From an uncultured Gammaproteobacteria bacterium (GTDB taxonomy: Bacteria; Patescibacteriota; Patescibacteriia; Patescibacteriales; UBA12075), in contig CAYWNT010000005.1 in assembly GCA_964459725.1 (NCBI GenBank), forward strand, positions 27,657 to 91,656: 64,000 nt of DNA, given 5' to 3'. The position numbers were made by a program, and so were the translations under genes. Position 1 is the first letter of the stretch, and each line of letters begins with the position of its first letter. Below the pieces are notes generated by a model. That model ran no database searches, was not told the origin of the DNA, and worked only from the letters and a program-made list of their open reading frames with translations. Below are positions 28,121 to 46,007 of this stretch, piece after piece.

Positions 28121-29293
28121 CTACTTAAGACCGTGGCAAGTCTTAAATACCTCACATTTTCTACAATTGCCAATTTTACTGGCAGCCGCTCCTTGTATTT
28201 TTCCACCACAAAATGTTCCATCCTTTACCCAGCACTTATGACCATCATCAGGATAAGCTGGACAAACGCCAAACTCAGCTACATTGACGCCTCCCTTTTG
28301 GCGACCGCATTTTTTCACTTCCCAACAATTAGGCAAATTGATATTATTCCGCTGTCCAAAAATTTGTAAATAAAGTTGCAAAACAAAATCAGTTGTCGTA
28401 GAAGCTTGCTTTCCTATGTCAGCTGCTATAGCAGCCAATTGATCAGATCGGTCGACATTGGCCTGAGTTACTCCGCCAAGACTGGAAATTACCTGACTTA
28501 CTTCTCCTATACTGATTGATTGCTCATTTGTGGCATTGGCGATTTCATCAACCAAATTCATTACTTCCATCTGGTCATTTTTCACATTCTCAAAAACCGA
28601 CTCTGTGTCAACTACTATACCAAATGATTCTTCTATTCCATTCGTGATGCCTTCAATTGAAACCGAAGTCTCTTTTGCAGCTTCTGTCGCACGCAAAGCC
28701 AAATTTCTCACCTCATCTGCCACAACAGAAAATCCCATACCTGCTTTTCCTGCTCGGGCAGCCTCTACCGCAGCGTTTAAAGCAAGCAGATTTGTCTGAA
28801 AGGCTATCCCGTCAATTATCTTTACAATTTTGCTTGCTTCTTCACTAACCCTCCTGATGTCCGTCATTTTATTTTTCACTCCGGTTGTTAAGTCAGAAGC
28901 ATTGGTAATCATGTTGCTAAAATCTCTCACCAAAATATTCATCTCTTTGGAGTTTTCAGCATTCTTCTTAGTAGTCGAGGAAGTTTCCTCCAGAGATACC
29001 GAGCTCTCCTCCAAGGCTACCGCCTGAGATGAAGTATCCCTGGCCAATGACTTACTGGCTGACAACATATTCTGAGACGTAACATCAAACTCTCCTGCTC
29101 TATCGACTAAGGCATCGACAACCACACTAAGCTTTCCAACAATGCCCCGAGACAAAAGCTCTGATACTCCAATCGCCACCAAAACTGCTAACAACGCAGC
29201 ATAAGGCAAAGGCAAAAACTCATTAACAACAAAAACAATCAAACCGCAAAGAAAAAAACAAACATATATTTTTTTACGTATCCCAAACTTCAT
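28121..29293 (-). CDS. Methyl-accepting chemotaxis protein signalling domain with C-terminal Cys-rich (two-CW-like) domain
   Basis: 2 TM; [37 protein letters not shown]; C-terminus [42 protein letters not shown]. Confidence 0.85.
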
Positions 29294-29569: not shown

Positions 29570-29597
29570 TTGATTTTTTATATTTTTCCGCTATACT
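29570..29597 (+). promoter_or_regulatory. Sigma70-type promoter upstream of RT non-coding region
   Basis: TTGATT (29570-75) - 16 nt - TATACT (29592-97). Confidence 0.5.
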
Positions 29598-29603
29598 AGT
29601 AGC

Positions 29604-29801
29604 AAGGCTGCCTTTTTACTGCCTTTTGTGTTTTTTGCAAAGGGTAAAAAAAGGGTCATCTGTGATCGGATGGCTCATTCATTGTAAACTGCAACTTCTG
29701 CCAAGTCCTGCACAATCGATTTATGCTGTAACTACGCAGGCTCTGACAAACGCTGTTGGCAGTTTCACAATCCTGAGACTTTGAAATCGTCGTAGCACCT
29801 T
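29604..29801 (+). ncRNA. Candidate retron msr/msd-like structured non-coding RNA (boundaries uncertain)
   Basis: G+C-richer than flanks by eye; hairpins 29653-29676 and 29698-29762; possible end pairing 29604-11 with 29795-801; directly upstream of a retron-type RT. Confidence 0.4.
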
Positions 29802-29969
29802 ATTTTATTATTATTATGATGATTATTAAAAAGTTTCACAACTTAAGTTTTCTGGGATGTTTTATGATCAAAATTATCTAATAAAATTGCCCAAGAAGAC
29901 TGCAACCGCTCTTTCAGGTGGGAGAACTTGAACTTTTCCTATTTACGAGCGGGAGGAGCCTTAACTTGT

Positions 29970-30004
29970 GGGAGGTGTGTTTTATCCACCTCCCTCTTTC
30001 TTTT
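29970..30004 (+). terminator. Terminator/attenuator-like hairpin 25 nt upstream of RT start
   Basis: GGGAGGTG (29970-77) / CACCTCCC (29987-94), 9-nt loop, then TCTTTCTTTT. Confidence 0.5.
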
Positions 30005-30028
30005 ACAACTAAATACGAGGAGGAAGAA

Positions 30029-31066
30029 ATGGTCAGTGAAGATATTCTTCAGAAATACTACTACATTTTTAAAGAATATTTCTCTGTTCCTCCCGCATAT
30101 TTTGACGGACTCTACTATACAATTTGTTCTAAAGAAGAATTGTATAGAAAAAGTAGAGAGCCCAAAAAAAACGGAGGATTCAGAGAAATACACGCACCCT
30201 GCGAAGCATTAAAATTGATCCAAAGAAAATTGCATAAGTATTTTAGTACAATTGAAATTGATGATAATCTTTTTGCCTACAGAGAAGGTGGGTCACCGAT
30301 AAAAAATGCAATTAGCCACGTAAAGGACAACAAGGGGCCGGAGTGGATGCTGAAAATGGATTTGAAAAATGCATTTCCTTCTGTAGACGCCCCCCTGCTT
30401 CAGATTGTACTACGAGCAATTCTCATTGAGAACGATAAGCTCCAAGAAGAGTTTGATTCATTTATTGGATTTGATCGCAATTTTGACGAATTTATTAAAA
30501 TTCTCATCTCTCTTGTAACTCACAACGAACGTCTAACCCAGGGAGCTCCATCATCCCCATCCTTGCTCAATCTTTCCTTGACCTATCTTGGTATAATTTC
30601 CGAGATAAAATCATTGTGCCAAAAACACGGTGTTAATTTTTCTGTCTACTCTGATGATTTTGTCTTTACATCAAATACAAAAATTTCAAAAAATTTCAGA
30701 AAAGACATTACAGTGATAATAGAGGGAATGGGATTTTTTGAAGTAAACCCAGAAAAAACCATGCTGAGCAATTTCCGTCATAGAGCGCATAAAATAACCG
30801 GAGTAGTTCTCACAGTAAATCCAATTGGAAATATAAGATTCACCCTTCCTCAAAAAACAATAAAAACTTACAGGGGAAAAATCAACAGGGTAATTAAGAT
30901 GTTGTCTGAGGGGAAATACCCAACCAAAAAAGAAGACGGAATATCAGTCAACGAAATCAAAGGAGAAATTAACTGGCTGCGAAGTGTCTGCGGAGATAAT
31001 CTTCCTTCAGCCGTAAGAAAACTTGTTTTCAAATTCGAAAACATACTACGGGACACAAGTCCTTAA
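30029..31066 (+). CDS. Retron-type reverse transcriptase (RT domain only, 345 aa)
   Basis: GAGGAGG SD 5 nt before ATG 30029; GGFREIHAP, NAISH (NAxxH), MDLKNAFPSV, LTQGAPSSPSLLNL, YSDDFVF, HKITGVVL motifs in canonical order. Confidence 0.85.
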   Translation: MVSEDILQKYYYIFKEYFSVPPAYFDGLYYTICSKEELYRKSREPKKNGGFREIHAPCEALKLIQRKLHKYFSTIEIDDNLFAYREGGSPIKNAISHVKDNKGPEWMLKMDLKNAFPSVDAPLLQIVLRAILIENDKLQEEFDSFIGFDRNFDEFIKILISLVTHNERLTQGAPSSPSLLNLSLTYLGIISEIKSLCQKHGVNFSVYSDDFVFTSNTKISKNFRKDITVIIEGMGFFEVNPEKTMLSNFRHRAHKITGVVLTVNPIGNIRFTLPQKTIKTYRGKINRVIKMLSEGKYPTKKEDGISVNEIKGEINWLRSVCGDNLPSAVRKLVFKFENILRDTSP

Positions 31067-31090
31067 ACTAATTAAAACTTCACATTCATA

Positions 31091-31123
31091 CCCAATCGCA
31101 ATTACGCGGTTGGGTATTTTTTT
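31091..31123 (+). terminator. Rho-independent terminator of RT gene
   Basis: CCCAATCGC-AATTAC-GCGGTTGGG then TATTTTTTT. Confidence 0.75.
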
Positions 31124-31132
31124 ATAAAAAAA

Positions 31133-31175
31133 CAGGGTTAATCATGTTTCACTTGTGTGAAAATGATTAACCCTG
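31133..31175 (-). terminator. Long hairpin terminator of the convergent 60-aa ORF
   Basis: CAGGGTTAATCATGTTTCAC-TTGT-GTGAAAATGATTAACCCTG (about 19 bp, one bulge); U-tract on minus strand at 31121-31132. Confidence 0.7.
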
Positions 31176-31209
31176 GCTTGGCTCAGCAAATGCTTATTCT
31201 CCGAATAGT

Positions 31210-31392
31210 TTAAGCAATAGCTGTTGCGCCGGTCGCCTCAAGGGGGACAAAAGATTCACCGTAACATGGCTCGACAGGAATCACCTGGGCAGCATCATCG
31301 GCTGTATCATGGCAGAGTACCTTACATTCATCGGTAGGATTGGCTTTCAGTCGGCGGCGGTGATCATGTTTTCTTCCAGTTGGAACGGTCAT
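31210..31392 (-). CDS. G+C-rich small ORF (60 aa, hypothetical)
   Basis: AGGAGG SD 7 nt before ATG; MTVPTGRKHDHRRRLKANPTDECKVLCHDTADDAAQVIPVEPCYGESFVPLEATGATAIA; own promoter candidate TTGACT-16-TAAAAT (31523-31496, minus strand) and terminator. Confidence 0.55.
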   Translation of the reverse strand: MTVPTGRKHDHRRRLKANPTDECKVLCHDTADDAAQVIPVEPCYGESFVPLEATGATAIA

Positions 31393-31689
31393 GGCAATAC
31401 CTCCTAGGCATTTTTTGCGCTCTTATGCTATCCAAGTGCATAGATGCGCTTCTCCAATTGTTCAGAGCTTAGCTCTGAAAACCTTATTTAATTATATTTT
31501 AACAAATTCTTAATTTAAGTCAAGAAAAAATAAAAAAAATTTAAATTAATAATAAATTCTTTATTATTAGCGAATATTCTCACATTTAATTCAAACAAAA
31601 AATAACAACACTTGCCTTATCTCCAACTTTTTAAAACTTTTCCACAGCCAAAGATTACCCAAAAATTTCGTAGGTCTCTTGCTTTATTT

Positions 31690-31733
31690 AATTAATAGTA
31701 CTTTTAATAGTACTATTAAAAGTACTATTAATT
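31690..31733. promoter_or_regulatory. Perfect 44-bp palindrome with three AGTACT cores (candidate operator)
   Basis: Checked base by base: 31690-31733 is self-complementary; AGTACT at 31697, 31709, 31721 (12-bp spacing); 116 nt upstream of the HD-domain gene. Confidence 0.6.
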
Positions 31734-31848
31734 TTCAAATCTACAATCAACTCCCACCAATTAAATCATCTCCACTTCTCCAAACTCTACTCACTTAAAA
31801 AATTATTTTAGCTTTACAAATCTACAAATATACAGTAAAATAACATCA

Positions 31849-32736
31849 ATGAATAAAAATCAACTCGAAAAAAAATTATATAAAATTGCAGAGTCTCTTA
31901 GTGCGAAAGACAAGAAAATCTTATTAAAAGCCTATGAGCTTGCCGAAAAAGTTCATAAACACCAAAAAAGAAAATCCGGCGCCCCTTTTATTGTCCACCC
32001 ACTAGCAGTAGCCATTAATCTTTGGGAACAATTTAAAGATGTAGATCTTACTATAGCAGGACTCCTCCACGACACCATTGAGGATGGAGGGAAAGCTTAT
32101 GAAAAGGAAATATACGAAAACTTTGGAAAAGAAATCGGCTTCATGGTTGACGCCCTAAACAAAAGATCGAAAGGATTTTATAAAAAAAGAAAGAAATTTA
32201 CAGATAGGACAAAGAGGTTTTTATGGGCCGGCCTTCAGAACCCCTACATATTTCTATTAAAAATTGCTGACAGAGAACAAAATTTATTAGACGTTGAAAA
32301 CCTCCCCTCTAACAAACAAGTGAGGATCTCATTTGAAACTCAGGCCATCTATGAACCACTAAGAAAAATTCTGAATTATGAAGAATGCAATGATACTAAT
32401 ATAGTTAAATTGAAAAAAGATTTAAACAAATTTATCAAATCTCATAACCTAAAAGACATTAAAGCTCTAAAAAATTATTTAATAAGCGAATACTACAAAG
32501 GATTCACCACGGAAACATTTAACGAGGTATATAAAAATTCAGATAAAATAATTTGGGAAACAAATGATATGGATGAGTTTGCCAAGCTATGTAAAAATAA
32601 ACAATTTGATGAAAGTGTGACAATTGTATCTATGCAAAGCGAAGAATCAAAAAGATCAGTCTTATTTCACTTTAAACTAGCACATGTTGGAGATAAAAAA
32701 ATCAAAGAATTAAAAATAAAATCATTTAAATCATAA
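31849..32736 (+). CDS. HD-domain (p)ppGpp hydrolase-like protein (RelA/SpoT hydrolase domain, SAH-like) with unknown C-terminal extension
   Basis: HKHQKRKSGAPFIVHPLAVA..AGLLHDTIEDG..FLLKIADREQNL..ETQAIYEPL follows the RSH hydrolase-domain pattern. Confidence 0.75.
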   Translation: MNKNQLEKKLYKIAESLSAKDKKILLKAYELAEKVHKHQKRKSGAPFIVHPLAVAINLWEQFKDVDLTIAGLLHDTIEDGGKAYEKEIYENFGKEIGFMVDALNKRSKGFYKKRKKFTDRTKRFLWAGLQNPYIFLLKIADREQNLLDVENLPSNKQVRISFETQAIYEPLRKILNYEECNDTNIVKLKKDLNKFIKSHNLKDIKALKNYLISEYYKGFTTETFNEVYKNSDKIIWETNDMDEFAKLCKNKQFDESVTIVSMQSEESKRSVLFHFKLAHVGDKKIKELKIKSFKS

Positions 32737-32738
32737 AT

Positions 32739-33704
32739 ATGAAAAGTTTTCATAGCACAATCACAGATCAGGAGCTGGACGCTGAATTTAAAAGCAATTT
32801 AGAACACCGCTCTTTAGAACAAAAATTTTCGTATATAAAAGAAAGTGCAGCGGCTTATTATAATAAAAAACATCTTAAATCGGCTTATATGAGCAAGCCA
32901 AGTCAAACGCTGCAATTCAACGATTATCTACAATTCGTCAAAAAAACAGTATCCCCTTCTGAAAAAACTGTTATTATAGTCTTGGGTTGCGGAAATATGA
33001 ATCAGGAAATAAAAATTTTAAAAAAACTGGGGGGAAAATACAATATAGATTTAATTGGAGTTGATTCATCAAAAGCAATGCTAGATCTTGCCCGCAAAAC
33101 TCTGAAAAAAAATAATATAAAACAGATTTTAATGCACTCTGACTTTACCAAACAAGAATTCAGAAAAAGCATTGAAAAAATGACTAAAAATTATCAAAAA
33201 AGAATTTTTTCATTTACTGGTGGCACTCTCACCAATGTAAACCAAACCGCGATTGCAGACTCTCTCTACAATCTACTTAATAAAAAAGATATACTTTGGG
33301 TTGATACAGTTTTAAGAAAAAGTTTAAAAAAAACTGATGATATTAAAAATTTTAATGCTATTTATTCCCTAACAAAAAATCCAGCTAGGGTAAATTTTTG
33401 GACACTTCCTTTAAAAAGAGCTGGAATACCCTTGGATGCTGGCAGTTTAACAATGAATACATCAGAAGAGTCATCTGTTGGTGTTATGAAATTTACCATA
33501 TCCTTTAAATTTAAAAAATTAGTAAAGATAAAATATAAAAATGAAGTTATTCATTTTTCAAAAAATGACACTATTGACTTACGACATTTTCGCTTATATC
33601 ACGCTCCTACATTTATTATTTTTTTTAAAGACCACGGGTTTAAATTGCTAGATAAGCATCTAGCTGTAAAAATGGGACAATTTATGTTTAAAAAAATGAC
33701 TTAA
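32739..33704 (+). CDS. SAM-dependent methyltransferase, EgtD-like (Methyltransf_33-like) architecture
   Basis: Motif I VIIVLGCGN; FTGGTLTNV and ILWVDTVL parallel EgtD FLGSTIGNL / LLLGTDL (recollection); 3-nt gap to upstream HD gene. Confidence 0.55.
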   Translation: MKSFHSTITDQELDAEFKSNLEHRSLEQKFSYIKESAAAYYNKKHLKSAYMSKPSQTLQFNDYLQFVKKTVSPSEKTVIIVLGCGNMNQEIKILKKLGGKYNIDLIGVDSSKAMLDLARKTLKKNNIKQILMHSDFTKQEFRKSIEKMTKNYQKRIFSFTGGTLTNVNQTAIADSLYNLLNKKDILWVDTVLRKSLKKTDDIKNFNAIYSLTKNPARVNFWTLPLKRAGIPLDAGSLTMNTSEESSVGVMKFTISFKFKKLVKIKYKNEVIHFSKNDTIDLRHFRLYHAPTFIIFFKDHGFKLLDKHLAVKMGQFMFKKMT

Positions 33705-36821: not shown

Positions 36822-38267
36822 TTACTGAAAAATAATTTCCCATTTTACAGAATCAGGAGAATCTTGAATTGATACCCCCTTGGATTTTAATTCCTCCTTT
36901 ATACTGTCAGCCTGCTCATAGTCCTTCATATTCTTAGCAGATTGACGCTCTTCTAATTTTGAGTTAATGAAATCCTCAGTTAAATTCCTCTCTGCAAGAA
37001 TTTTTTCTTTTAACCTTGAAAGATATTCACTTGGATCTTCCTCAAAAAGCCTCAAAACAGAAGAAACTTTGTTAAAGATTTGGAAAAAGGATTGAAAGAT
37101 GCCAGTCTTTTCTTCCGCGGAGTATTTACTGGAATCAATAACCTTATTCAACTCTTTGAATATTTCTGTAATTTCAGAAATCACCCTTGGAGTATTAAAA
37201 TTATCATCCATTAACTCATTAAACTTTTTCTCAAAATCGGCAATAATTCCCGGAACTCGATTCAAGTCAACCTTGATATCCGCATCATTAGCAAATTCCT
37301 CCATTCGCAAAAGAGTTGTATAAAAATAGTGAAGTCGCTTCCTGGCATTTAGAAATAAGTCATCTGAAAAATCAACATTGGAACTATAAGTATGAGTAAG
37401 TATCACATACCTGATTTCCTCTGGGAAATACTTTTTCAAGGCATCCTTAACTGTTAAAAAATTTCCCAAACTTTTACTCATCTTAGTTCCGTTGATCATT
37501 ACTAGACCGTTATGAACCCAGTATTTTGCAAAAGTTTTACCTGAATAAGCTTCGCTTTGAGCAAGCTCATTTTCATGATGAGGAAATATTAAATCCAGTC
37601 CGCCTCCATGAATATCTATCTCATCGCCAAGATATTTATGAGCCATTACCGAACATTCAATATGCCATCCCGGTCGCCCTTTTGACCAAGGAGAGTCCCA
37701 ATATGGCTCACCCGGCTTATGAGGCTTCCACAGAGCAAAGTCATTGTTATTTTTCTTGCGCGGTGATTCGTCAGAATTTATCAGATCATCCCTTTTTCTG
37801 TTGGAAAGCTTGCCATACTCGACAAACTTATCAAGATCAAAAAATACTTCGCCCTCAACAACATAGGCAAATCCCTTATCAATGAGAGCTTGAATATATT
37901 CTATTATATCAGAAATGCAATCAGTGACTTTTGGCTCATGAGTGGCGTGACGCACTTTAAGTTTTTCCAGATCTTCTGAATTTTCTCTGATATAATGCTC
38001 GCTTACCTCTATTGCTTCTCTGCCTTCCTCGTTTGCTCTTTTGATTATCTTATCATCTACATCTGTAAAATTTCTTACATATGTAATCTTATATCCAAGA
38101 TATTCAAAATAAGCCCTGATAACATCATACACAACTGCCTGCCTGGCATGCCCGATATGAATTTCATCATAAGGGGTTATTCCGCAAGCATACATTTTTA
38201 ACTCCCCCTCTGACAGCGGTACAAAATCTTCCTTTTTCCTTGTTAAAGAACTGTATATTTTTATCAT
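36822..38267 (-). CDS. cysS: Cysteinyl-tRNA synthetase
   Basis: HIGHAR and KMSKSLGN class-I motifs; CGITPYD N-terminus. Confidence 0.97.
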   Translation of the reverse strand: MIKIYSSLTRKKEDFVPLSEGELKMYACGITPYDEIHIGHARQAVVYDVIRAYFEYLGYKITYVRNFTDVDDKIIKRANEEGREAIEVSEHYIRENSEDLEKLKVRHATHEPKVTDCISDIIEYIQALIDKGFAYVVEGEVFFDLDKFVEYGKLSNRKRDDLINSDESPRKKNNNDFALWKPHKPGEPYWDSPWSKGRPGWHIECSVMAHKYLGDEIDIHGGGLDLIFPHHENELAQSEAYSGKTFAKYWVHNGLVMINGTKMSKSLGNFLTVKDALKKYFPEEIRYVILTHTYSSNVDFSDDLFLNARKRLHYFYTTLLRMEEFANDADIKVDLNRVPGIIADFEKKFNELMDDNFNTPRVISEITEIFKELNKVIDSSKYSAEEKTGIFQSFFQIFNKVSSVLRLFEEDPSEYLSRLKEKILAERNLTEDFINSKLEERQSAKNMKDYEQADSIKEELKSKGVSIQDSPDSVKWEIIFQ

Positions 38268-38360: not shown

Positions 38361-39437
38361 TCATGTTTTAGATGAACTTGCAATGATATTTAACACATAG
38401 CTCATTATTTTATCTATTCCAGTCGTTATTCTGACATATTTTTCCAGTGGGCTACCAAAAACTCTATACTCTATATTATTCTTTCCCAAACTTTCTAAAA
38501 TTTCCTTTTTCTTGTCTCCAAAATCAACCAGAACAAAATTTCCCCCTCTTTCAACAACCTTATATCCTAAATCTTTTAAACCATCTGCGAACTTACTCCG
38601 TGAGACAACAATATCCTTTACAGCACTCTTTAAATATTTCTTGTTGGAACAAATAGCCACAATTGCATTTACTGCCAAAGAGCTTACCTCCATCATCGGC
38701 TTAAATTTTTCTATCATATCAGCTAAACGTTCAGAGGTTAAAATATATCCAATTCTCAGTCCTGCCATTCCTATATTTTTTGAAAAGCTTCTTATGATAA
38801 TAAGATTCGAAAAATCCTCTAACAAGACAGAGGTATCGATATCTCCAAAGTCGGCATAAGTTTCATCAATAATGACTACTGTATTTTGTTTTTCTGCTTT
38901 TTCTACTAAACTACGAATTTCAAAAACTGAAAAGACAAATCCGGTAACTCCACTTGGATTGGCAATAATTACAGCTTTCGTTTTTGGCTTAAGCAAGGAC
39001 AATAAATTATCCGATGAACATGCTCCGTCTTTATCACAAAATATTTCAGAAAATTTACAATTCAATAAAGATGCATGAATTTTGTACATTAAAAAAGTTG
39101 GCGATATAGTGGCAATCTCATCTCCCGGATCACAAAAGGTTTCAAGTGTCATTTTTATAGCCGCATCAGCACCACTTGTTAATAGCAATCTGTCTCGGGG
39201 TTGAGATAAGTATTTAGAAAGCGAATCATAGGCCTGATTGATCTCCGGATAAGAGCTGGCTATCTCTTTGGTGAAACCGTCCATCATCTCTTTAAATAGC
39301 TTTTCAGGCATAGATGGCACATATTCATTCATTCCAAGCCTGATCTTGTTTTGTCTAGTTTTATAATTCTGCCTTAGTCGCTCAATATTATTTGCATGTT
39401 TTCTGCATGAAATCATATAATTATTTTTGATTATCAT
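38361..39437 (-). CDS. PLP-dependent aminotransferase, class I/II (HisC-like)
   Basis: SFSKNIGMAGLRIGY PLP-lysine motif; N.Y.P. region. Confidence 0.8.
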   Translation of the reverse strand: MIIKNNYMISCRKHANNIERLRQNYKTRQNKIRLGMNEYVPSMPEKLFKEMMDGFTKEIASSYPEINQAYDSLSKYLSQPRDRLLLTSGADAAIKMTLETFCDPGDEIATISPTFLMYKIHASLLNCKFSEIFCDKDGACSSDNLLSLLKPKTKAVIIANPSGVTGFVFSVFEIRSLVEKAEKQNTVVIIDETYADFGDIDTSVLLEDFSNLIIIRSFSKNIGMAGLRIGYILTSERLADMIEKFKPMMEVSSLAVNAIVAICSNKKYLKSAVKDIVVSRSKFADGLKDLGYKVVERGGNFVLVDFGDKKKEILESLGKNNIEYRVFGSPLEKYVRITTGIDKIMSYVLNIIASSSKT

Positions 39438-40644
39438 TGTAATCTTTTAAATCAAGATTTAATGAATGTCTAATTCTGTTCATTATTTTATTTGTAACAC
39501 TCCCCCAGTCTGTTGCCACAGCAATTCCATTTTCAGTTAATTTTTCCTCGCATTTTTTTATTCTTTTTTTCACATCTTCTTCAGAAATCTGATTTTCATA
39601 CTCACTTGCCTCAATTGCAGAATGTGGCATAAATGCGCTTGCGACAACATGTCTTGGAGAATGCTTGATAACAAAATTAATTGATTTTTCAACATCACTC
39701 TCACTTTCTCCTGGATAACCAAACAAAAGATGAGTTGAAAAATTATTAAATTTTATTTTATTAAAATCACTAAATAATTTATCTATTTGTTTATAATTAT
39801 ATTTTCTGCGCATTGAAGATAATATCTTATCAGAAACTGACTGTATTGGTATATTGAGATATATAATCGTTCCTTCTTCAATTAGCTTCATCATTTGCTC
39901 ATAATATTCTAAAAAATGCTCTGGATTTAATTGAGATATTCCGATTTTTATATCATCTCTAATTTCTTCTTTCAATCTATTGATCAATTGTGGCAACGAA
40001 CTGCCTGTATCTTTGCCGTATTCCCCGCTACTATCAGCTAAAAACATAACCCTATTTGTATCACTCTCCTTGGTGGCTTTTTTGCAATCGTTAATAAGAT
40101 CATCTTCTACAAAACTTCTAAAAACAGGGAACATTTGTCTTTCTGAGCAGTAACTGCAATTATTAGTGCACCCCTCGCAAATATTCAATTTAACATATTC
40201 ATCTTCAAAACAAATATTATCTAATGGGTGTTTTTTTCTATGCTCAACCGCACTTTCAACAAGCTTGTTTTCTGCTAATTTAAGTTTTGTGTTTTTCAGC
40301 TCAGATTTATTCTCAGATAAAATATTTTCAAAAAGTTTTTTTCTGTCTCTCCATGGGACAACCTCTATATCTAATTCAGATTTTATCTTTGATGTAAATT
40401 CATTATCAAACGTACACCCAATATAGACAATTTTAGCTGGATTATTTTGTTTTAATTCCTTGGCGACCAAAAAAGAGAAATCACGCCAATCAGCACGAAA
40501 TTCACAACCCCAAACAAAAATAATGTCCGCCTCAGCTTGGCTATCTACAATTTCATGGTTACTCTTATCGACAAAGTCCATGTATTGTCTAATATTTACT
40601 TTTCTTGTATTGCATGGATTTAAATTTGCAAAAAATATTTTCAT
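39421..40644 (-). CDS. Radical SAM protein, MiaB/RimO-like methylthiotransferase architecture (no TRAM seen)
   Basis: MTTase-like N-domain (..EADIIFVWGCEF..), CEGCTNNCSYCS CxxxCxxC cluster. Confidence 0.7.
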   Translation of the reverse strand: MKIFFANLNPCNTRKVNIRQYMDFVDKSNHEIVDSQAEADIIFVWGCEFRADWRDFSFLVAKELKQNNPAKIVYIGCTFDNEFTSKIKSELDIEVVPWRDRKKLFENILSENKSELKNTKLKLAENKLVESAVEHRKKHPLDNICFEDEYVKLNICEGCTNNCSYCSERQMFPVFRSFVEDDLINDCKKATKESDTNRVMFLADSSGEYGKDTGSSLPQLINRLKEEIRDDIKIGISQLNPEHFLEYYEQMMKLIEEGTIIYLNIPIQSVSDKILSSMRRKYNYKQIDKLFSDFNKIKFNNFSTHLLFGYPGESESDVEKSINFVIKHSPRHVVASAFMPHSAIEASEYENQISEEDVKKRIKKCEEKLTENGIAVATDWGSVTNKIMNRIRHSLNLDLKDYNDNQK

Positions 40645-40679
40645 AAAAACAAAATTTATTTATTTAAAATGTATAATAA

Positions 40680-41981
40680 TTATCTAACACGTGGTTTATA
40701 TCCATCTGCTAAAGCTGGTGACTCCTCCAATAGTCGCTTGAATATGTCATCTTCATTTTCTAATAACGGCATTCCTAAAAAATCTGATTCCAATTTTCCT
40801 GATTTTTTACTATGGATTAGTTTTTCAAATCTGCCTGTTAGCCATTCAGCATTCCAAAAATCTTTCAACTGGAAACAGTACCTTGATAATAAATGATAAA
40901 GAACGTTATAAGCCTTAATATCATAATCATACTTACGAGATAAATCATCCTCAACATTCTGTAAATTATCAGATGTGGCCACAGAGTTTATTTCGCATTT
41001 TCCAATAGTAAAAATCTTCTTTCCCCAAAAAGCTCCATGATAAGCCACTGTTGAATTAAGCGAGATTATACCGTCCACCATGGGCGTAAGCCATTGAGAG
41101 CAGAAAGCATAATGATCAAAACTTTCATTATAGCGTAAATTAGGAAATTTGCTCATTAAATACTTTTCTGTCACTTCAGGTATTTCCCCTTTCATCTGCA
41201 AGCTATGTTTTGTAAATAATACAATTACATCTTTTGGCACATTATGCATTACATGCAACAAAAAATCTAATTGACTTTTATATATCGAAGCTGAATCATT
41301 TATTATCACACCATTATATGATAAAGGCACAAGTAAAACCTTTTGATCGGGATAATCTATTAGATCTTCTCTTTTAAAAGGATTATGGGGTTTAAATATC
41401 TTATCTTCGTATCTCTTTTTAAGCTGAATCATCCTATTAGTTTGTTCTTCTGTAATATTCTTATTCCTTATTTGTTCTAAAAATACATATGGATATGAAT
41501 TTGACAAAAAACCAAATGGATCCAATTGGCAAAGATATGGATAAGGAGGACGAGAAAAAATACCGTTTTCAAATTGCATTGATAGCGCCTTAGGATAACA
41601 CTTTTTCCAAATTAAAACCGGCGTAGTAAACGATATAATTACATCAGGATTCCAGTTGCTTAATTCTTTTTTGACTAATTTTTTAAATAATTTTTTCTGC
41701 TTATCCGTGTCTTTATTTTCATGTTGTGTTTTATGCGCTTCATAGTGATTGGGATATATTTCATATAAATCCTTGAATGGCATAGTGTAAATATCACAAG
41801 ATATTTTCAAGTTTTTATCCTTGATGACTTCCAGTATATCTTCACCAACTAACAATTTTACATCATGTCCGTAATTACTCAGAGCCTTGATTGATGAAAT
41901 AAAAATATTTTCTAATGTGTATAATTGGTCTCCTGCGATATCTCTATATATCCACGGATCTAGGGCAAATAAAATTTTCAT
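40680..41981 (-). CDS. Hypothetical; capsule-polysaccharide (KpsS/KpsC-like) glycosyltransferase resemblance
   Basis: 433 aa; LLVPLSYNGVIINDSASIY..VLFTKHS resembles the Capsule_synth pattern (weak, by eye). Confidence 0.35.
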   Translation of the reverse strand: MKILFALDPWIYRDIAGDQLYTLENIFISSIKALSNYGHDVKLLVGEDILEVIKDKNLKISCDIYTMPFKDLYEIYPNHYEAHKTQHENKDTDKQKKLFKKLVKKELSNWNPDVIISFTTPVLIWKKCYPKALSMQFENGIFSRPPYPYLCQLDPFGFLSNSYPYVFLEQIRNKNITEEQTNRMIQLKKRYEDKIFKPHNPFKREDLIDYPDQKVLLVPLSYNGVIINDSASIYKSQLDFLLHVMHNVPKDVIVLFTKHSLQMKGEIPEVTEKYLMSKFPNLRYNESFDHYAFCSQWLTPMVDGIISLNSTVAYHGAFWGKKIFTIGKCEINSVATSDNLQNVEDDLSRKYDYDIKAYNVLYHLLSRYCFQLKDFWNAEWLTGRFEKLIHSKKSGKLESDFLGMPLLENEDDIFKRLLEESPALADGYKPRVR

Positions 41982-41986
41982 TTTGT

Positions 41987-42715
41987 TTATTTGTTATTTT
42001 TTAACCAATTCTTGCACGACTCAATATCTCCCTTTTCATGTACATCGGGCCCGCCATCCAAAATTAAAGACTTAATATTGTCACCCATAAATGTCCAAGG
42101 CTGTTGCCCCTCTTTAGCTTGAATAGATTTCGAAATTCGTAAAGTCCAAAAATTATGACATAAAAAATAATTATCAGGTAAATCTTGCCTGTTAGTAGAT
42201 ATACTCTTTTTCGGAAAATTAAAATATGTCTGAAGAAAACCTTTGTTATTAATAAATTTAGCTCTATACGGATGATGATCATTTTGAGGATACACAGGGA
42301 CAACAGCTGATGCTTTTTTGTCTTTAGCTAATAGCTCGATACTCTCCTCAATCCATTCAGGTTTAAAATATACGGTATTGCCCAATAACACCACTAAAAT
42401 ATCAGGAATATAAGAATCTTTAGTTTTCATAACGGAGAGGGCATGATGTATGGCATCAACATGCAAAGATGTAGGACGTGATATTTTTTTTGGTCTTACA
42501 ATTTTCTTATAGCCCTCTTTATCTCCCAGGCGCAATATCTCTTGATCATCACTGCTTATATAGTAACTATCGATGCTATGACATTTTTTTGCAACACTAA
42601 TCGGATACCAGACTAATGGCTTTTTGTTAACCAAAATAAGGTGTTTATTAGCTAAGGTATTATTTCCTCTAGCAGTAACAAGAGCGGCTATTTTTAATTT
42701 TTTATTATTTGGCAT
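41987..42715 (-). CDS. Acylneuraminate/CMP-sugar cytidylyltransferase family protein
   Basis: KIAALVTARGNNTLANKHL..KPLVWYPI..ISSDDQEI matches the NeuA/KdsB-like N-terminal pattern. Confidence 0.7.
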   Translation of the reverse strand: MPNNKKLKIAALVTARGNNTLANKHLILVNKKPLVWYPISVAKKCHSIDSYYISSDDQEILRLGDKEGYKKIVRPKKISRPTSLHVDAIHHALSVMKTKDSYIPDILVVLLGNTVYFKPEWIEESIELLAKDKKASAVVPVYPQNDHHPYRAKFINNKGFLQTYFNFPKKSISTNRQDLPDNYFLCHNFWTLRISKSIQAKEGQQPWTFMGDNIKSLILDGGPDVHEKGDIESCKNWLKNNK

Positions 42716-42726
42716 ATTTAAATCAA

Positions 42727-43716
42727 TTATTTTTTTATTTCTAAAAATCTATAAGAGCAACTATCACAGCAAGAGTTATTATGGGACAAGCCCCGTTTGT
42801 GTGATTCTCTTAGTTGATTCATGATTTCTCCATTCCACATTTCTTTTAGGCTATTTTCTTTTGCATTACCAAGATACAAATCTTTATTATTTTTCACCCC
42901 ATGAAACAGACATGGATAAACTGATCCATCCCACAGCACAACAAGTCTCTGCCATAAGAAATTACAACAAAAAGATGATGAAATAACACCGGTGTAGTCA
43001 TGCTCACCTGTTTCTTTTCTATAATCTATCATGCCCACTTCATCAGCCAAAGAACTCCAAAGATTTTTAAACTCATTAATATGAGGCTTTAAATCATCTT
43101 GCAAAACTGCCTGAATCCGTATTTGCGGATATTTTGAATCCGTTTCATCTCTATATTTTTTTAAATTCTGAATATTTGTCTTTACGGTTTTGAAATCTGC
43201 TCCAACCTGACAAAGATTAAAAGATTTTTCATCCCAGCCACCGACAGAAATTGAAATCCTTGGAATCTGCAAATCAACTAACTTACGGGAAATCTCTTTT
43301 GACAAAAGCATGCCATTGGTATTGAAATAAAAATCAATTAATTTTGATTTTTTTGCTAATTCTAAAAAATTAACCAACTTATCATGAAGCAAAGGCTCCC
43401 CCCTTAAACTGAATTTCATGCTATATCCATTCTCTTTATTTACTTCATCAATGATTTTTCCAACAATATCTTCATCTATATAACCGACTTCATTATCCCC
43501 CCAATTTTTTTTAGTCCGAGCACAATAAGGGCAACTCAAATTGCATGCATTGGTAACTTCTAAATCAATATTAAGCGGAAAATCAGCAACTCTGCCTTGT
43601 TTTGGATTTTCCTCCCATGACTTTCTGTAATTCTTATAAGCCTTATTAAAACTTTGACTATCATGAATTGAATTAGTGCTAATAGTGCTATAATTTGTTG
43701 TATAGTTTTTACTCAT
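42727..43716 (-). CDS. Radical SAM / SPASM-domain protein
   Basis: VTNACNLSCPYCAR cluster; C-terminal CCNF..GSVYPC..CCDSCSY auxiliary-cluster cysteines. Confidence 0.75.
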   Translation of the reverse strand: MSKNYTTNYSTISTNSIHDSQSFNKAYKNYRKSWEENPKQGRVADFPLNIDLEVTNACNLSCPYCARTKKNWGDNEVGYIDEDIVGKIIDEVNKENGYSMKFSLRGEPLLHDKLVNFLELAKKSKLIDFYFNTNGMLLSKEISRKLVDLQIPRISISVGGWDEKSFNLCQVGADFKTVKTNIQNLKKYRDETDSKYPQIRIQAVLQDDLKPHINEFKNLWSSLADEVGMIDYRKETGEHDYTGVISSSFCCNFLWQRLVVLWDGSVYPCLFHGVKNNKDLYLGNAKENSLKEMWNGEIMNQLRESHKRGLSHNNSCCDSCSYRFLEIKK

Positions 43717-44452
43717 TTATATTTTTGAAATACTTAAATAATAATTCATCAAATGATGTCAGTGGTATTCCTTTTAATTTCTCTTCCTCCATCTGCATCT
43801 GATAAATATTTTTTGAATCAACAAGACATTCCGCCAATCCCGGGCTTTTTCTTTCGTTGGCTATGGCAATACCGCTATCAGCTTTTTTTAACATTGGGGC
43901 ATCAATTCTACTATCGCCAAATGCTATAACTTTCTTGCCTGCTTTGCGTAACTTTTTTACAATTTCAAATTTGATATCAGGATCAACTATAAAATCATCA
44001 AAATCAAAATAATTTCCACCCACCAAGACTACATTATTCCAATCATTTGATTTAATAACATTTTCCCATAATAGCTTTATCCCTGAAGTAACCACAATAA
44101 CCAAGGGTAATGTATTCATAAATTCATTCCAGCCTTTACGCAACTCAACAAATTCTGAACTTTTATTACAATATTTAATGTAATCATCTTTTTCGATTTG
44201 TGAATATGTATTTGCCGCTTTTAAAAATCCCTTAAAATTCCTACCTGTTTTAATAAAATCCGATCTAAAATCAATCCATGACTGCTTATTGAAATTCATC
44301 TCCCAAAAAATGCGTGACGTATCCTTTGTTGACACAGTCTCATCAGCATCTGTTACTACTATACATTGATCATCTATATTACTTATCAAATCATCAAAAT
44401 ATGAATTAAACTTTTTTAAATTTTCATTTTTATTGTATTGAAATTTTTTCAT
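43709..44452 (-). CDS. HAD-superfamily phosphatase-like protein
   Basis: VVTDADETV (DxDxT) and AFGDSRIDAPML (GDxxxD). Confidence 0.55.
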   Translation of the reverse strand: MKKFQYNKNENLKKFNSYFDDLISNIDDQCIVVTDADETVSTKDTSRIFWEMNFNKQSWIDFRSDFIKTGRNFKGFLKAANTYSQIEKDDYIKYCNKSSEFVELRKGWNEFMNTLPLVIVVTSGIKLLWENVIKSNDWNNVVLVGGNYFDFDDFIVDPDIKFEIVKKLRKAGKKVIAFGDSRIDAPMLKKADSGIAIANERKSPGLAECLVDSKNIYQMQMEEEKLKGIPLTSFDELLFKYFKNINE

Positions 44453-45312
44453 ACTTCTATCAACGAAATCATCTCGTGATGATATTTTTTTGAAGTAGTT
44501 AACAAAATAAATCCCTCTATTAATAATTCATCATCTTTTAATGTTAAAAAATTACGTATATCAACAGGTTTATTTTCAAAAGATCCAATAAATCCTCCGC
44601 CCTCATTTACTGCTAAGGCTAAAAATCCAAAATCTAAAAGAGGGATCCTTGATACGCAGTATGCCTGTATTTCACCTTTCATAAAAGCCAAGATGTTATA
44701 ACAACCAGATCTATACACTTTTTTCTTGGTAAACTGAGATAGGTCGTTATTAACACTTGGACTTACGCTGATTGAATTATTCAAAGAAAAATTTTCTTGT
44801 TTTAAATAACATCGCTCATCATCAACATAAGCTCCTAAATTTTTCGCCGCATATACCAAGATATTCTGTTCGGGATAAAAAACCACTCCAGCAATTATTT
44901 CAAATCCATACGCCAAAGAAATAAAAATTCCATATTTATCAGAATTAATTGAGTTTTTTTCAATGTAGTTTCTGGTGCCGTCTATAGGATCAATCAAAAA
45001 TGTATATTTATCTTTCTTTAATTTGCCACTATGGGAAAACTGGGATGCAAGATTAGCTATTTCATCATTATTTTCCTCGGCGTAAACTCCACAAAAATTA
45101 AAAGATTCCAGAAGAACTTTCATGATAATTTTTTGGCACTCTAAATCAGCCATTGTTAACGCTGTCTTATTGTCATGCAGAATTGGATTTTCATCATTAA
45201 ACTGTTTGTCAAGTTTTCCGATATCTTTAATATTTTCACGCATGTCCAAGGCTGTTGCCCCTGCTTTTTTAACAGCTTTTTTCATATCCAAGAGACACTT
45301 TTCAATATCCAT
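44449..45312 (-). CDS. Inositol monophosphatase family protein
   Basis: FLIDPIDGTRNY motif; 4-nt overlap with downstream HAD gene. Confidence 0.75.
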   Translation of the reverse strand: MDIEKCLLDMKKAVKKAGATALDMRENIKDIGKLDKQFNDENPILHDNKTALTMADLECQKIIMKVLLESFNFCGVYAEENNDEIANLASQFSHSGKLKKDKYTFLIDPIDGTRNYIEKNSINSDKYGIFISLAYGFEIIAGVVFYPEQNILVYAAKNLGAYVDDERCYLKQENFSLNNSISVSPSVNNDLSQFTKKKVYRSGCYNILAFMKGEIQAYCVSRIPLLDFGFLALAVNEGGGFIGSFENKPVDIRNFLTLKDDELLIEGFILLTTSKKYHHEMISLIEV

Positions 45313-45722: not shown

Positions 45723-45834
45723 GGGGAGCCATTCAAAAAAGGCTTCCCGTACTGGTTAATACCCTTTCGGGTATCAGCTCACACAAGCAAAAACCAGACA
45801 GAAAGCCGTCTCTGTCCTTGTGTGAGTCTTTTTA
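45723..45834 (+). ncRNA. Candidate plus-strand structured small RNA ending in a terminator
   Basis: Three consecutive hairpins (45723-48, 45759-74, 45778-826) then TCTTTTT; the first stem has a G-U pair only on the plus-strand reading. Confidence 0.35.
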
Positions 45835-46007
45835 ACCATGCCTTAAGCTAATAAGGTTTAGGTTGCTCAATTAAATTGTAACTTAAAAATAACATAAATA
45901 GCAATAAAAATCAATATTTTATTGCAAATTTAATTATACTAAACGGCTTCAACATAGTTTATCATATTGTACATAAAATTTTCCTCAAGAAATTCTAAAG
46001 TTTTTAT

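Follow-up and report, generated by a model that had tools for sequence, protein, structure and literature searches.

A probable orphan small-protein gene convergent on a retron-type reverse transcriptase in an uncultured marine bacterium

The minus-strand unit at 31133-31523 of the window (the whole stretch of 64,000 nucleotides of DNA that was analysed) is probably a real orphan small-protein gene, judging from its sequence. With moderate confidence, it was assigned as an independently transcribed, monocistronic gene of no known family, whose product would act by binding. The case is made of the expression signals around a 60-codon open reading frame (ORF), of a coding signature at the level of codons and of the absence of homologues. 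An earlier note on this DNA had described the stretch as self-contained; the signals were found at the positions it gave and the codon usage of the frame was host-like, and the view that the unit stands by itself and most likely codes for a protein of 60 aa was thus upheld. The assembly comprised 1.70 Mb in 128 contigs (92% complete, 36.5% G+C), and DNA of the window was present in marine and seawater metagenome runs. The features of the unit, and those of the reverse transcriptase (RT) gene next to it, were as follows.

31496-31523, minus strand: candidate sigma-70-type promoter (TTGACT, a 16-nt spacer ending in TG, TAAAAT; 10 of 12 matches)
31393-31489, minus strand: 5′ leader of about 97 nt with three hairpins, from folding
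31400-31405, minus strand: Shine-Dalgarno sequence AGGAGG, with a 7-nt spacer to the ATG at 31392-31390
31210-31392, minus strand: 60-codon ORF from ATG to TAA (31212-31210), 6.5-kDa product
31176-31209, minus strand: 3′ untranslated stretch of 34 nt between stop codon and terminator
31126-31175, minus strand: intrinsic terminator, a 19-bp hairpin (31175-31133) with a 4-nt loop and one bulge, then T7 (31132-31126)
31088-31125, plus strand: the RT gene's own terminator, outside the unit, a hairpin (31088-31117) and T-run
30029-31066, plus strand: retron-type RT, unfused, 345 aa, its ATG behind a strong ribosome-binding site

The signals of the unit were examined one by one. The promoter proposed in the earlier note was recovered in full, a TG before the -10 element being seen in addition, and the start of transcription was put near 31489. 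A promoter scan over 3 kb listed 17 promoter-like sites, where shuffled sequences gave 9.3 ± 3.0, and because such sites are so frequent the promoter by itself carries little weight. The palindromes that had been noticed in the leader were confirmed as hairpins by folding. The fold of 31380-31492 was worth -31.3 kcal/mol (z = -2.63), with one of 200 shuffles as good. Hairpin 3 of the leader (AAUGCCU/AGGUAUU) overlapped part of the Shine-Dalgarno sequence, which makes translational gating plausible, and in a long-range helix UUGGAG of the leader paired with codons 3-5. The consensus AGGAGG was indeed present at 31405-31400, 7 nt ahead of the ATG. Across the genome, AGGAGG followed by ATG after 5-9 nt opened frames of at least 50 codons at 130 of 191 sites; the same share was 15-32% for five unrelated control hexamers and 55% for the overlapping GGAGGA. 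The genome employs AGGAGG as a ribosome-binding site. The assembly yielded no 3′ end of the 16S rRNA from which the anti-Shine-Dalgarno sequence could be taken. At the other end of the unit, the hairpin terminator of about 19 bp was present together with the T7 that follows it, and was worth about -25 kcal/mol (the difference between folds with and without the terminator). Because the T-run lies on the minus strand only, the hairpin at 31175-31133 terminates the small unit and not the RT gene. The RT gene has its own terminator at 31088-31117, in agreement with the earlier statement that the unit adjoins it, and the two terminators share a central T/A tract, so that the two transcripts end tail-to-tail.

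The open frame taken alone was not significant, being stop-free in 7.8% of composition-matched shuffles; the stop-to-stop frame was 70 aa, with just 10 open codons 5′ of the ATG. Codon bias, a check suggested with the original claim, was therefore scored with a codon table built from the genome's 702 ORFs of at least 250 codons. The log-likelihood per codon was -0.027 for the ORF frame and -0.19 to -1.48 for the other five frames. None of 2000 stop-free shuffles matched the score of the ORF (shuffle mean -0.266, sd 0.065), indicating host-like codon usage. The GC1-GC3 difference gave p = 0.001 by shuffling, in a test that is not independent of the codon-usage test. For calibration, genome windows with G+C of at least 0.45 were used, 600 in the true frame and 614 open non-coding frames inside genes. 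True-frame windows averaged -0.01, and the ORF fell at their 33rd percentile; the non-coding open frames averaged -0.282, and 6% of them reached the score of the ORF.

The product was basic in residues 1-20 (pI 12.0) and acidic in residues 21-60 (pI 4.05), and held three Cys and three His; the basic N-terminus, acidic core and three Cys described previously were all found. Its GRAVY was -0.42 and its highest 15-residue Kyte-Doolittle mean 0.79, with no hydrophobic segment. The 60-aa product was recorded identically in four public sources. AlphaFold2, run on the single sequence, gave a mean pLDDT of 46.6 and no secondary structure, and a protein language model returned a recognition value of 1496, which is low (2300 for most known families). 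A c-type haem motif was considered and rejected because a signal peptide is absent, as was a double-glycine leader, which would leave a core of 4 residues.

The sensitive profile searches proposed in the earlier note, which had recognised no family, were run, and the peptide had no match in Pfam, NCBIfam (E up to 1), PHROGs, PADLOC (E up to 0.01) or the PDB sequences. No homologue was found among 5.8 billion proteins, a word-index search returning only the query itself, and the ESM Atlas gave no usable match. An HMMER search of 1.84 billion representatives brought back, besides the query, one 1140-aa repeat protein (E = 2e-5); the latter was rejected as chance, since a single alignment of 24 bits and 13/40 was counted in six near-identical repeats. 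By tblastn, the peptide had no match in a phage collection and two matches at chance level (E 0.2-0.4) in a plasmid collection, and scans of viral and metagenome contigs revealed nothing resembling it. The genomes searched from the family, the order and the phylum were of 0.7-1.8 Mb. Forty relatives, none of them of the window's own genus, were searched with the unit: at the DNA level the matches were confined to the A+T-rich promoter region, namely the 60 nt at the start of the query, and the protein search gave nothing better than E 0.1. No paralogue or second copy of the unit was found in the 1.70-Mb assembly, where the other matches were only the hairpin's own arm and an A+T-rich 29-mer.

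The earlier note had been drawn to the unit by its G+C content, and the computed values agreed with what had been seen by eye. The unit had 43.5% G+C, the ORF 51.4%, the leader 42.3%, the 3′ part 40.3% and the 3′ untranslated stretch 44.1%, compared with 23.7% in the upstream flank (31524-31848), 28.8% in the spacer at 31067-31132 and 36.5% in the genome. The promoter coincided with the point where the G+C content changes sharply at the edge of the unit. Windows of 183 nt with G+C at least that of the ORF made up 2082 of 66918 (3.1%) in the genome; the G+C of the ORF is therefore unusual but not extreme. The G+C at codon positions 1, 2 and 3 was 0.667, 0.50 and 0.40 in the ORF and 0.465, 0.347 and 0.325 in the 702 long ORFs of the genome, with the same rank order. 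The small protein contains 8 Ala, 6 Thr, 5 Val, 5 Pro and 5 Asp, and the excess, being located at codon positions 1 and 2, is attributable to amino-acid composition, without need of a G+C-rich donor. The suggestion of a horizontally acquired cassette is thus not required to account for the G+C, and the third-position composition (GC3 of 0.40 against 0.325 in genome genes) argues against recent arrival from such a donor. Horizontal acquisition as such is possible, given that no match was found in the searched relatives; as none of the 40 is of the window's own genus, the unit's absence there neither dates nor places an acquisition. An integron cassette with attC was rejected, as no integrase was seen and the hairpin is short and perfect.

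Sequencing reads were compared over the same region. A second DNA run of the same study (X2) spanned 31212-31718 and was identical over the ORF. It was the sole other DNA run covering the ORF, two further runs (X3 and X4) covering scattered pieces with nothing of the ORF, and owing to this identity there is no polymorphism for dN/dS or another selection test. In a small metatranscriptome of the same study, two 151-nt contigs fell on the 3.5 kb examined, one in the RT gene and the other wholly within the ORF (31242-31390). The latter carried a 1-nt deletion at 31376 that would shift the frame at codon 6. This deletion was seen in a single contig at depth 2.4, 14 nt from the contig end, and may be an error, but it was still weighed against the coding reading. 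As the RNA library possibly contains DNA, transcription of the ORF is hinted at, no more.

Upstream of the unit, a perfect 44-nt palindrome at 31690-31733 was observed, in which a unit of about 11 nt with AGTACT at its centre is repeated three to four times in tandem. Arrays resembling it occur in four more intergenic places of the genome (C1:89376, C1:176237, C3:13151 and C4:91240), and the palindrome looks like an operator of a host regulon. It precedes the HD-domain gene, not the small ORF, and contigs of the X2 run break there. The genes that follow, at 31849-33704, encode a stand-alone 295-aa SpoT-type HD hydrolase (HD_4) and a 321-aa SAM methyltransferase (Methyltransf_33-like). The HD domain was matched in 38 of the 40 relatives, where the listed open frames were mostly of about 490-510 aa; by their length these are apparently full-length Rel homologues, of which the window's genome also has one. 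The short 295-aa form therefore looks like an accessory paralogue.

Taken together, these results would fit the following course of expression. The sigma-70-type promoter would give a transcript of about 360 nt, whose structured 97-nt leader would partly occlude the consensus Shine-Dalgarno sequence, and translation may be gated in this way. The 60-codon frame would then be translated, and the strong hairpin and U-tract would end the RNA tail-to-tail with the RT transcript. The 6.5-kDa product would be soluble and remain in the cytosol, and alone it would probably be disordered; its N-terminal arm is very basic, and its acidic tail bears Cys and His. Most likely the basic arm would bind nucleic acid, or the product would bind a partner protein; catalysis is not expected of it.

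The first alternative is that the unit works chiefly as RNA, the ORF being secondary or incidental. It could be a regulatory RNA of about 360 nt, or else a type-I-like module, its leader being controlled by an antisense RNA from the plus strand. The postulated antisense RNA is given below.

31271-31298 (weak promoter) to 31461-31479 (weak terminator), plus strand: postulated antisense RNA, from a consensus scan

In type I modules a small ORF is preceded by a long leader whose structure conceals part of the ribosome-binding site, and the present unit resembles them in each of these points, with possible antisense signals in addition. Its leader shows structure (z = -2.63) and exceeds its flanks in G+C, the Shine-Dalgarno sequence is partly paired, a plus-strand promoter-like site (9 of 12) lies inside the ORF and a plus-strand terminator-like hairpin lies in the leader. 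However, the antisense signals are weak consensus matches. The whole unit including the terminator folded at z = -3.74, but this value is due to the terminator, as the transcript body without it gave z = -0.88 and 20 of 100 shuffles folded equally well. Over the unit, Rfam 15 gave no match above the gathering score; at E up to 1 the sole match there was Srn266, which scored 32.4 bits where its gathering score is 63 and spanned both terminator hairpins (31090-31173). Elsewhere in the window, a LOOT RNA (RF03000) was detected at 45745-45864 on the minus strand, with 56.7 bits against a gathering score of 46.4 (E = 5.4e-8). The strong, frame-specific codon signal is also unexpected for a non-coding RNA. 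Type I toxins are mostly hydrophobic, whereas the peptide here is hydrophilic, with no membrane segment; a short hydrophobic membrane-active peptide was not what was found. Unlike type I modules, the unit has no repeats in the genome. An RNA function in place of the small-protein gene is therefore regarded as unlikely.

The unit lies immediately downstream of an RT gene. In a second alternative, the small protein would be the missing third component of the adjacent retron (an effector, an antitoxin-like modulator or a regulator), expressed from its own convergent promoter and acting on the RT-msDNA complex. The RT is retron-type: its best PADLOC models were RT_III-A (138.8 bits) and RT_II-A (126.5 bits), and its best NCBIfam model was the retron St85 RT, at 138.6 bits and thus below the cutoff of 235. 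The alignment shows the motifs NAxxH, QGAPSSP, YSDD and ITG. The closest RT relatives were only about 30% identical, and a single-protein scan of genome contigs was negative. The retron-like unit extends over 29570-31125, with a promoter-like site at 29570-29597 ahead of a candidate msr-msd and the RT. The fold of this candidate msr-msd, at 29598-29805 (z = -2.24), has one long and two short hairpins besides a closing helix. Divergent from the retron, the gene at 28121-29293 on the minus strand specifies a methyl-accepting chemotaxis protein in which the C-terminal 70 residues or so form a Cys-rich tail; such a protein is unusual in a 1.7-Mb genome. A template repeat of a diversity-generating kind (DGR) was rejected, as no second adenine-variable copy was present in the 1.70-Mb assembly and the RT scores as retron-type.

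Ten neighbouring proteins were tested against retron effector models, and none matched. For this reason the retron, with its unfused RT, looks two-part, leaving space for an unrecognised partner. The small ORF is the nearest unexplained gene to the RT, the immediate neighbours of the small unit being the RT and the HD hydrolase, and the T/A tract shared between the two terminators also speaks for a partner. On the other hand, the unit is convergent on the RT, with a separate promoter and terminator. In the RT family that is the nearest with a name (Bacteroidota-type), six of seven loci carried a same-strand ORF of 262-473 aa that starts within about 60 nt of the RT end, and the seventh and most distant (L041) had a convergent ORF of 270 aa; at none of the seven did a short convergent ORF start just past the RT. 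Among 400 genomes of the phylum, six had distant RTs, and none of these six had a similar small unit. A second retron-like RT, 28% identical to that of the window, was observed in the same genome (contig C9:40554-41417); it is followed by a 408-aa ORF on the same strand, with no small convergent ORF. Neither at this RT nor at the six RT loci from the phylum, seven loci in all, was a look-alike of the peptide found in ORF listings or by tblastn, whose matches occurred only in loci previously picked with the same peptide. The RT loci compared are too distant from the window's RT to count as the same clade.

Known small retron partners offer a further comparison. According to Mestre et al. (2020, PMC7736814), these belong to the cold-shock, Cro/C1 HTH or three-helix-bundle kinds and are found repeatedly within an RT clade. 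The small proteins associated with retrons of types V and VI, of 67-110 aa, speak for a partner role, as here too a short protein (60 aa) lies beside a retron-type RT, and those of type VI likewise have no identifiable domain (PMC7736814). In contrast to these auxiliaries, the present peptide fits none of their models and has no predicted helix, which sets it apart from the three-helix bundles of type VI, and its unit is convergent, has its own promoter and terminator and recurs nowhere. With regard to the marks of a retron accessory, no known cluster or domain (such as CSD, HTH, NDT, PRTase or 2TM) was matched, consistent with the lack of any PADLOC, Pfam or NCBIfam match, and the placement was convergent, not the same-strand, operon-like one beside the ncRNA and RT. 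In the literature on retrons with small or orphan partners, as far as it was accessible, nothing relevant turned up. A retron-partner role is thus neither excluded nor supported, and that the small protein is the missing component appears doubtful. Still more doubtful is a new retron type, in which a minimal retron (ncRNA and unfused RT) would have a convergent, disordered, 60-residue third component as a very small effector or modulator. In such a type, the dosage of the peptide would be set by its own promoter, by the gated leader and by tail-to-tail transcription with the RT.

It is just as doubtful as the partner role that the unit is non-functional or decaying, a chance open frame in G+C-richer foreign or eroded DNA with promoter- and terminator-like flanks. 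The complete absence of homologues, the 7.8% of composition-matched shuffles that were open, the abundance of promoter-like sites in A+T-rich DNA, the possible frameshift variant in the RNA contig and the low-confidence predicted structure would all agree with decay. However, an AGGAGG at the ideal distance, the codon usage of a true frame and a strand-specific terminator are jointly improbable as a coincidence. Were the unit a piece of some larger gene, homologues would moreover be expected, and none was found at any length; and merely 10 more open codons lie ahead of the ATG.

The last alternative, also raised in the earlier note, holds that the peptide is the precursor of a ribosomally made, modified peptide, with a basic leader and a Cys core processed by a radical-SAM/SPASM enzyme of the window; it is very improbable, for although the peptide is small, has three Cys and a polar, leader-like N-terminus, and a Radical_SAM and SPASM protein is indeed encoded at 42727-43716, that gene lies 11 kb off in a small-molecule-type operon, past housekeeping genes such as the 481-aa ORF at 36822-38267 (by eye, presumably a cysteinyl-tRNA synthetase), no maturase, protease or exporter is adjacent, and no precursor or leader family of NCBIfam or Pfam matches the peptide. 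The operon itself (38361-45312, minus strand) has seven genes, for a class I/II aminotransferase, a methylthiotransferase-like radical-SAM protein, an unknown 433-aa protein, a cytidylyltransferase, the radical-SAM/SPASM protein, a HAD hydrolase and an inositol monophosphatase. As a whole, the operon resembles a pathway of small-molecule or sugar modification, not of peptide maturation.

The orphan small-protein gene, as the preferred reading, was also compared with other such genes of uncultured bacteria with small genomes. It shares with them a short ORF, a strong ribosome-binding site, predicted disorder, a host-like third-position composition and the lack of a homologue beyond one lineage. 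It differs from them in that, having a terminator of its own and a long leader with structure, it is unusually complete by itself, and in being richer in G+C than 97% of genome windows of the same size. One lesson reaches beyond this gene: in an A+T-rich genome a G+C peak can arise from amino-acid composition alone, through codon positions 1 and 2, and a peak of that kind is no evidence for foreign origin.

The value of the finding would rise sharply only with a demonstrated link to the retron. If the small protein were a true partner, a 60-residue effector or modulator would widen the known retron architectures, and the test in a laboratory host would be easy. If the gene is real, it would add another small protein to those restricted to one lineage, here in an uncultured marine bacterium with a reduced genome, which is helpful for annotation and of little surprise.
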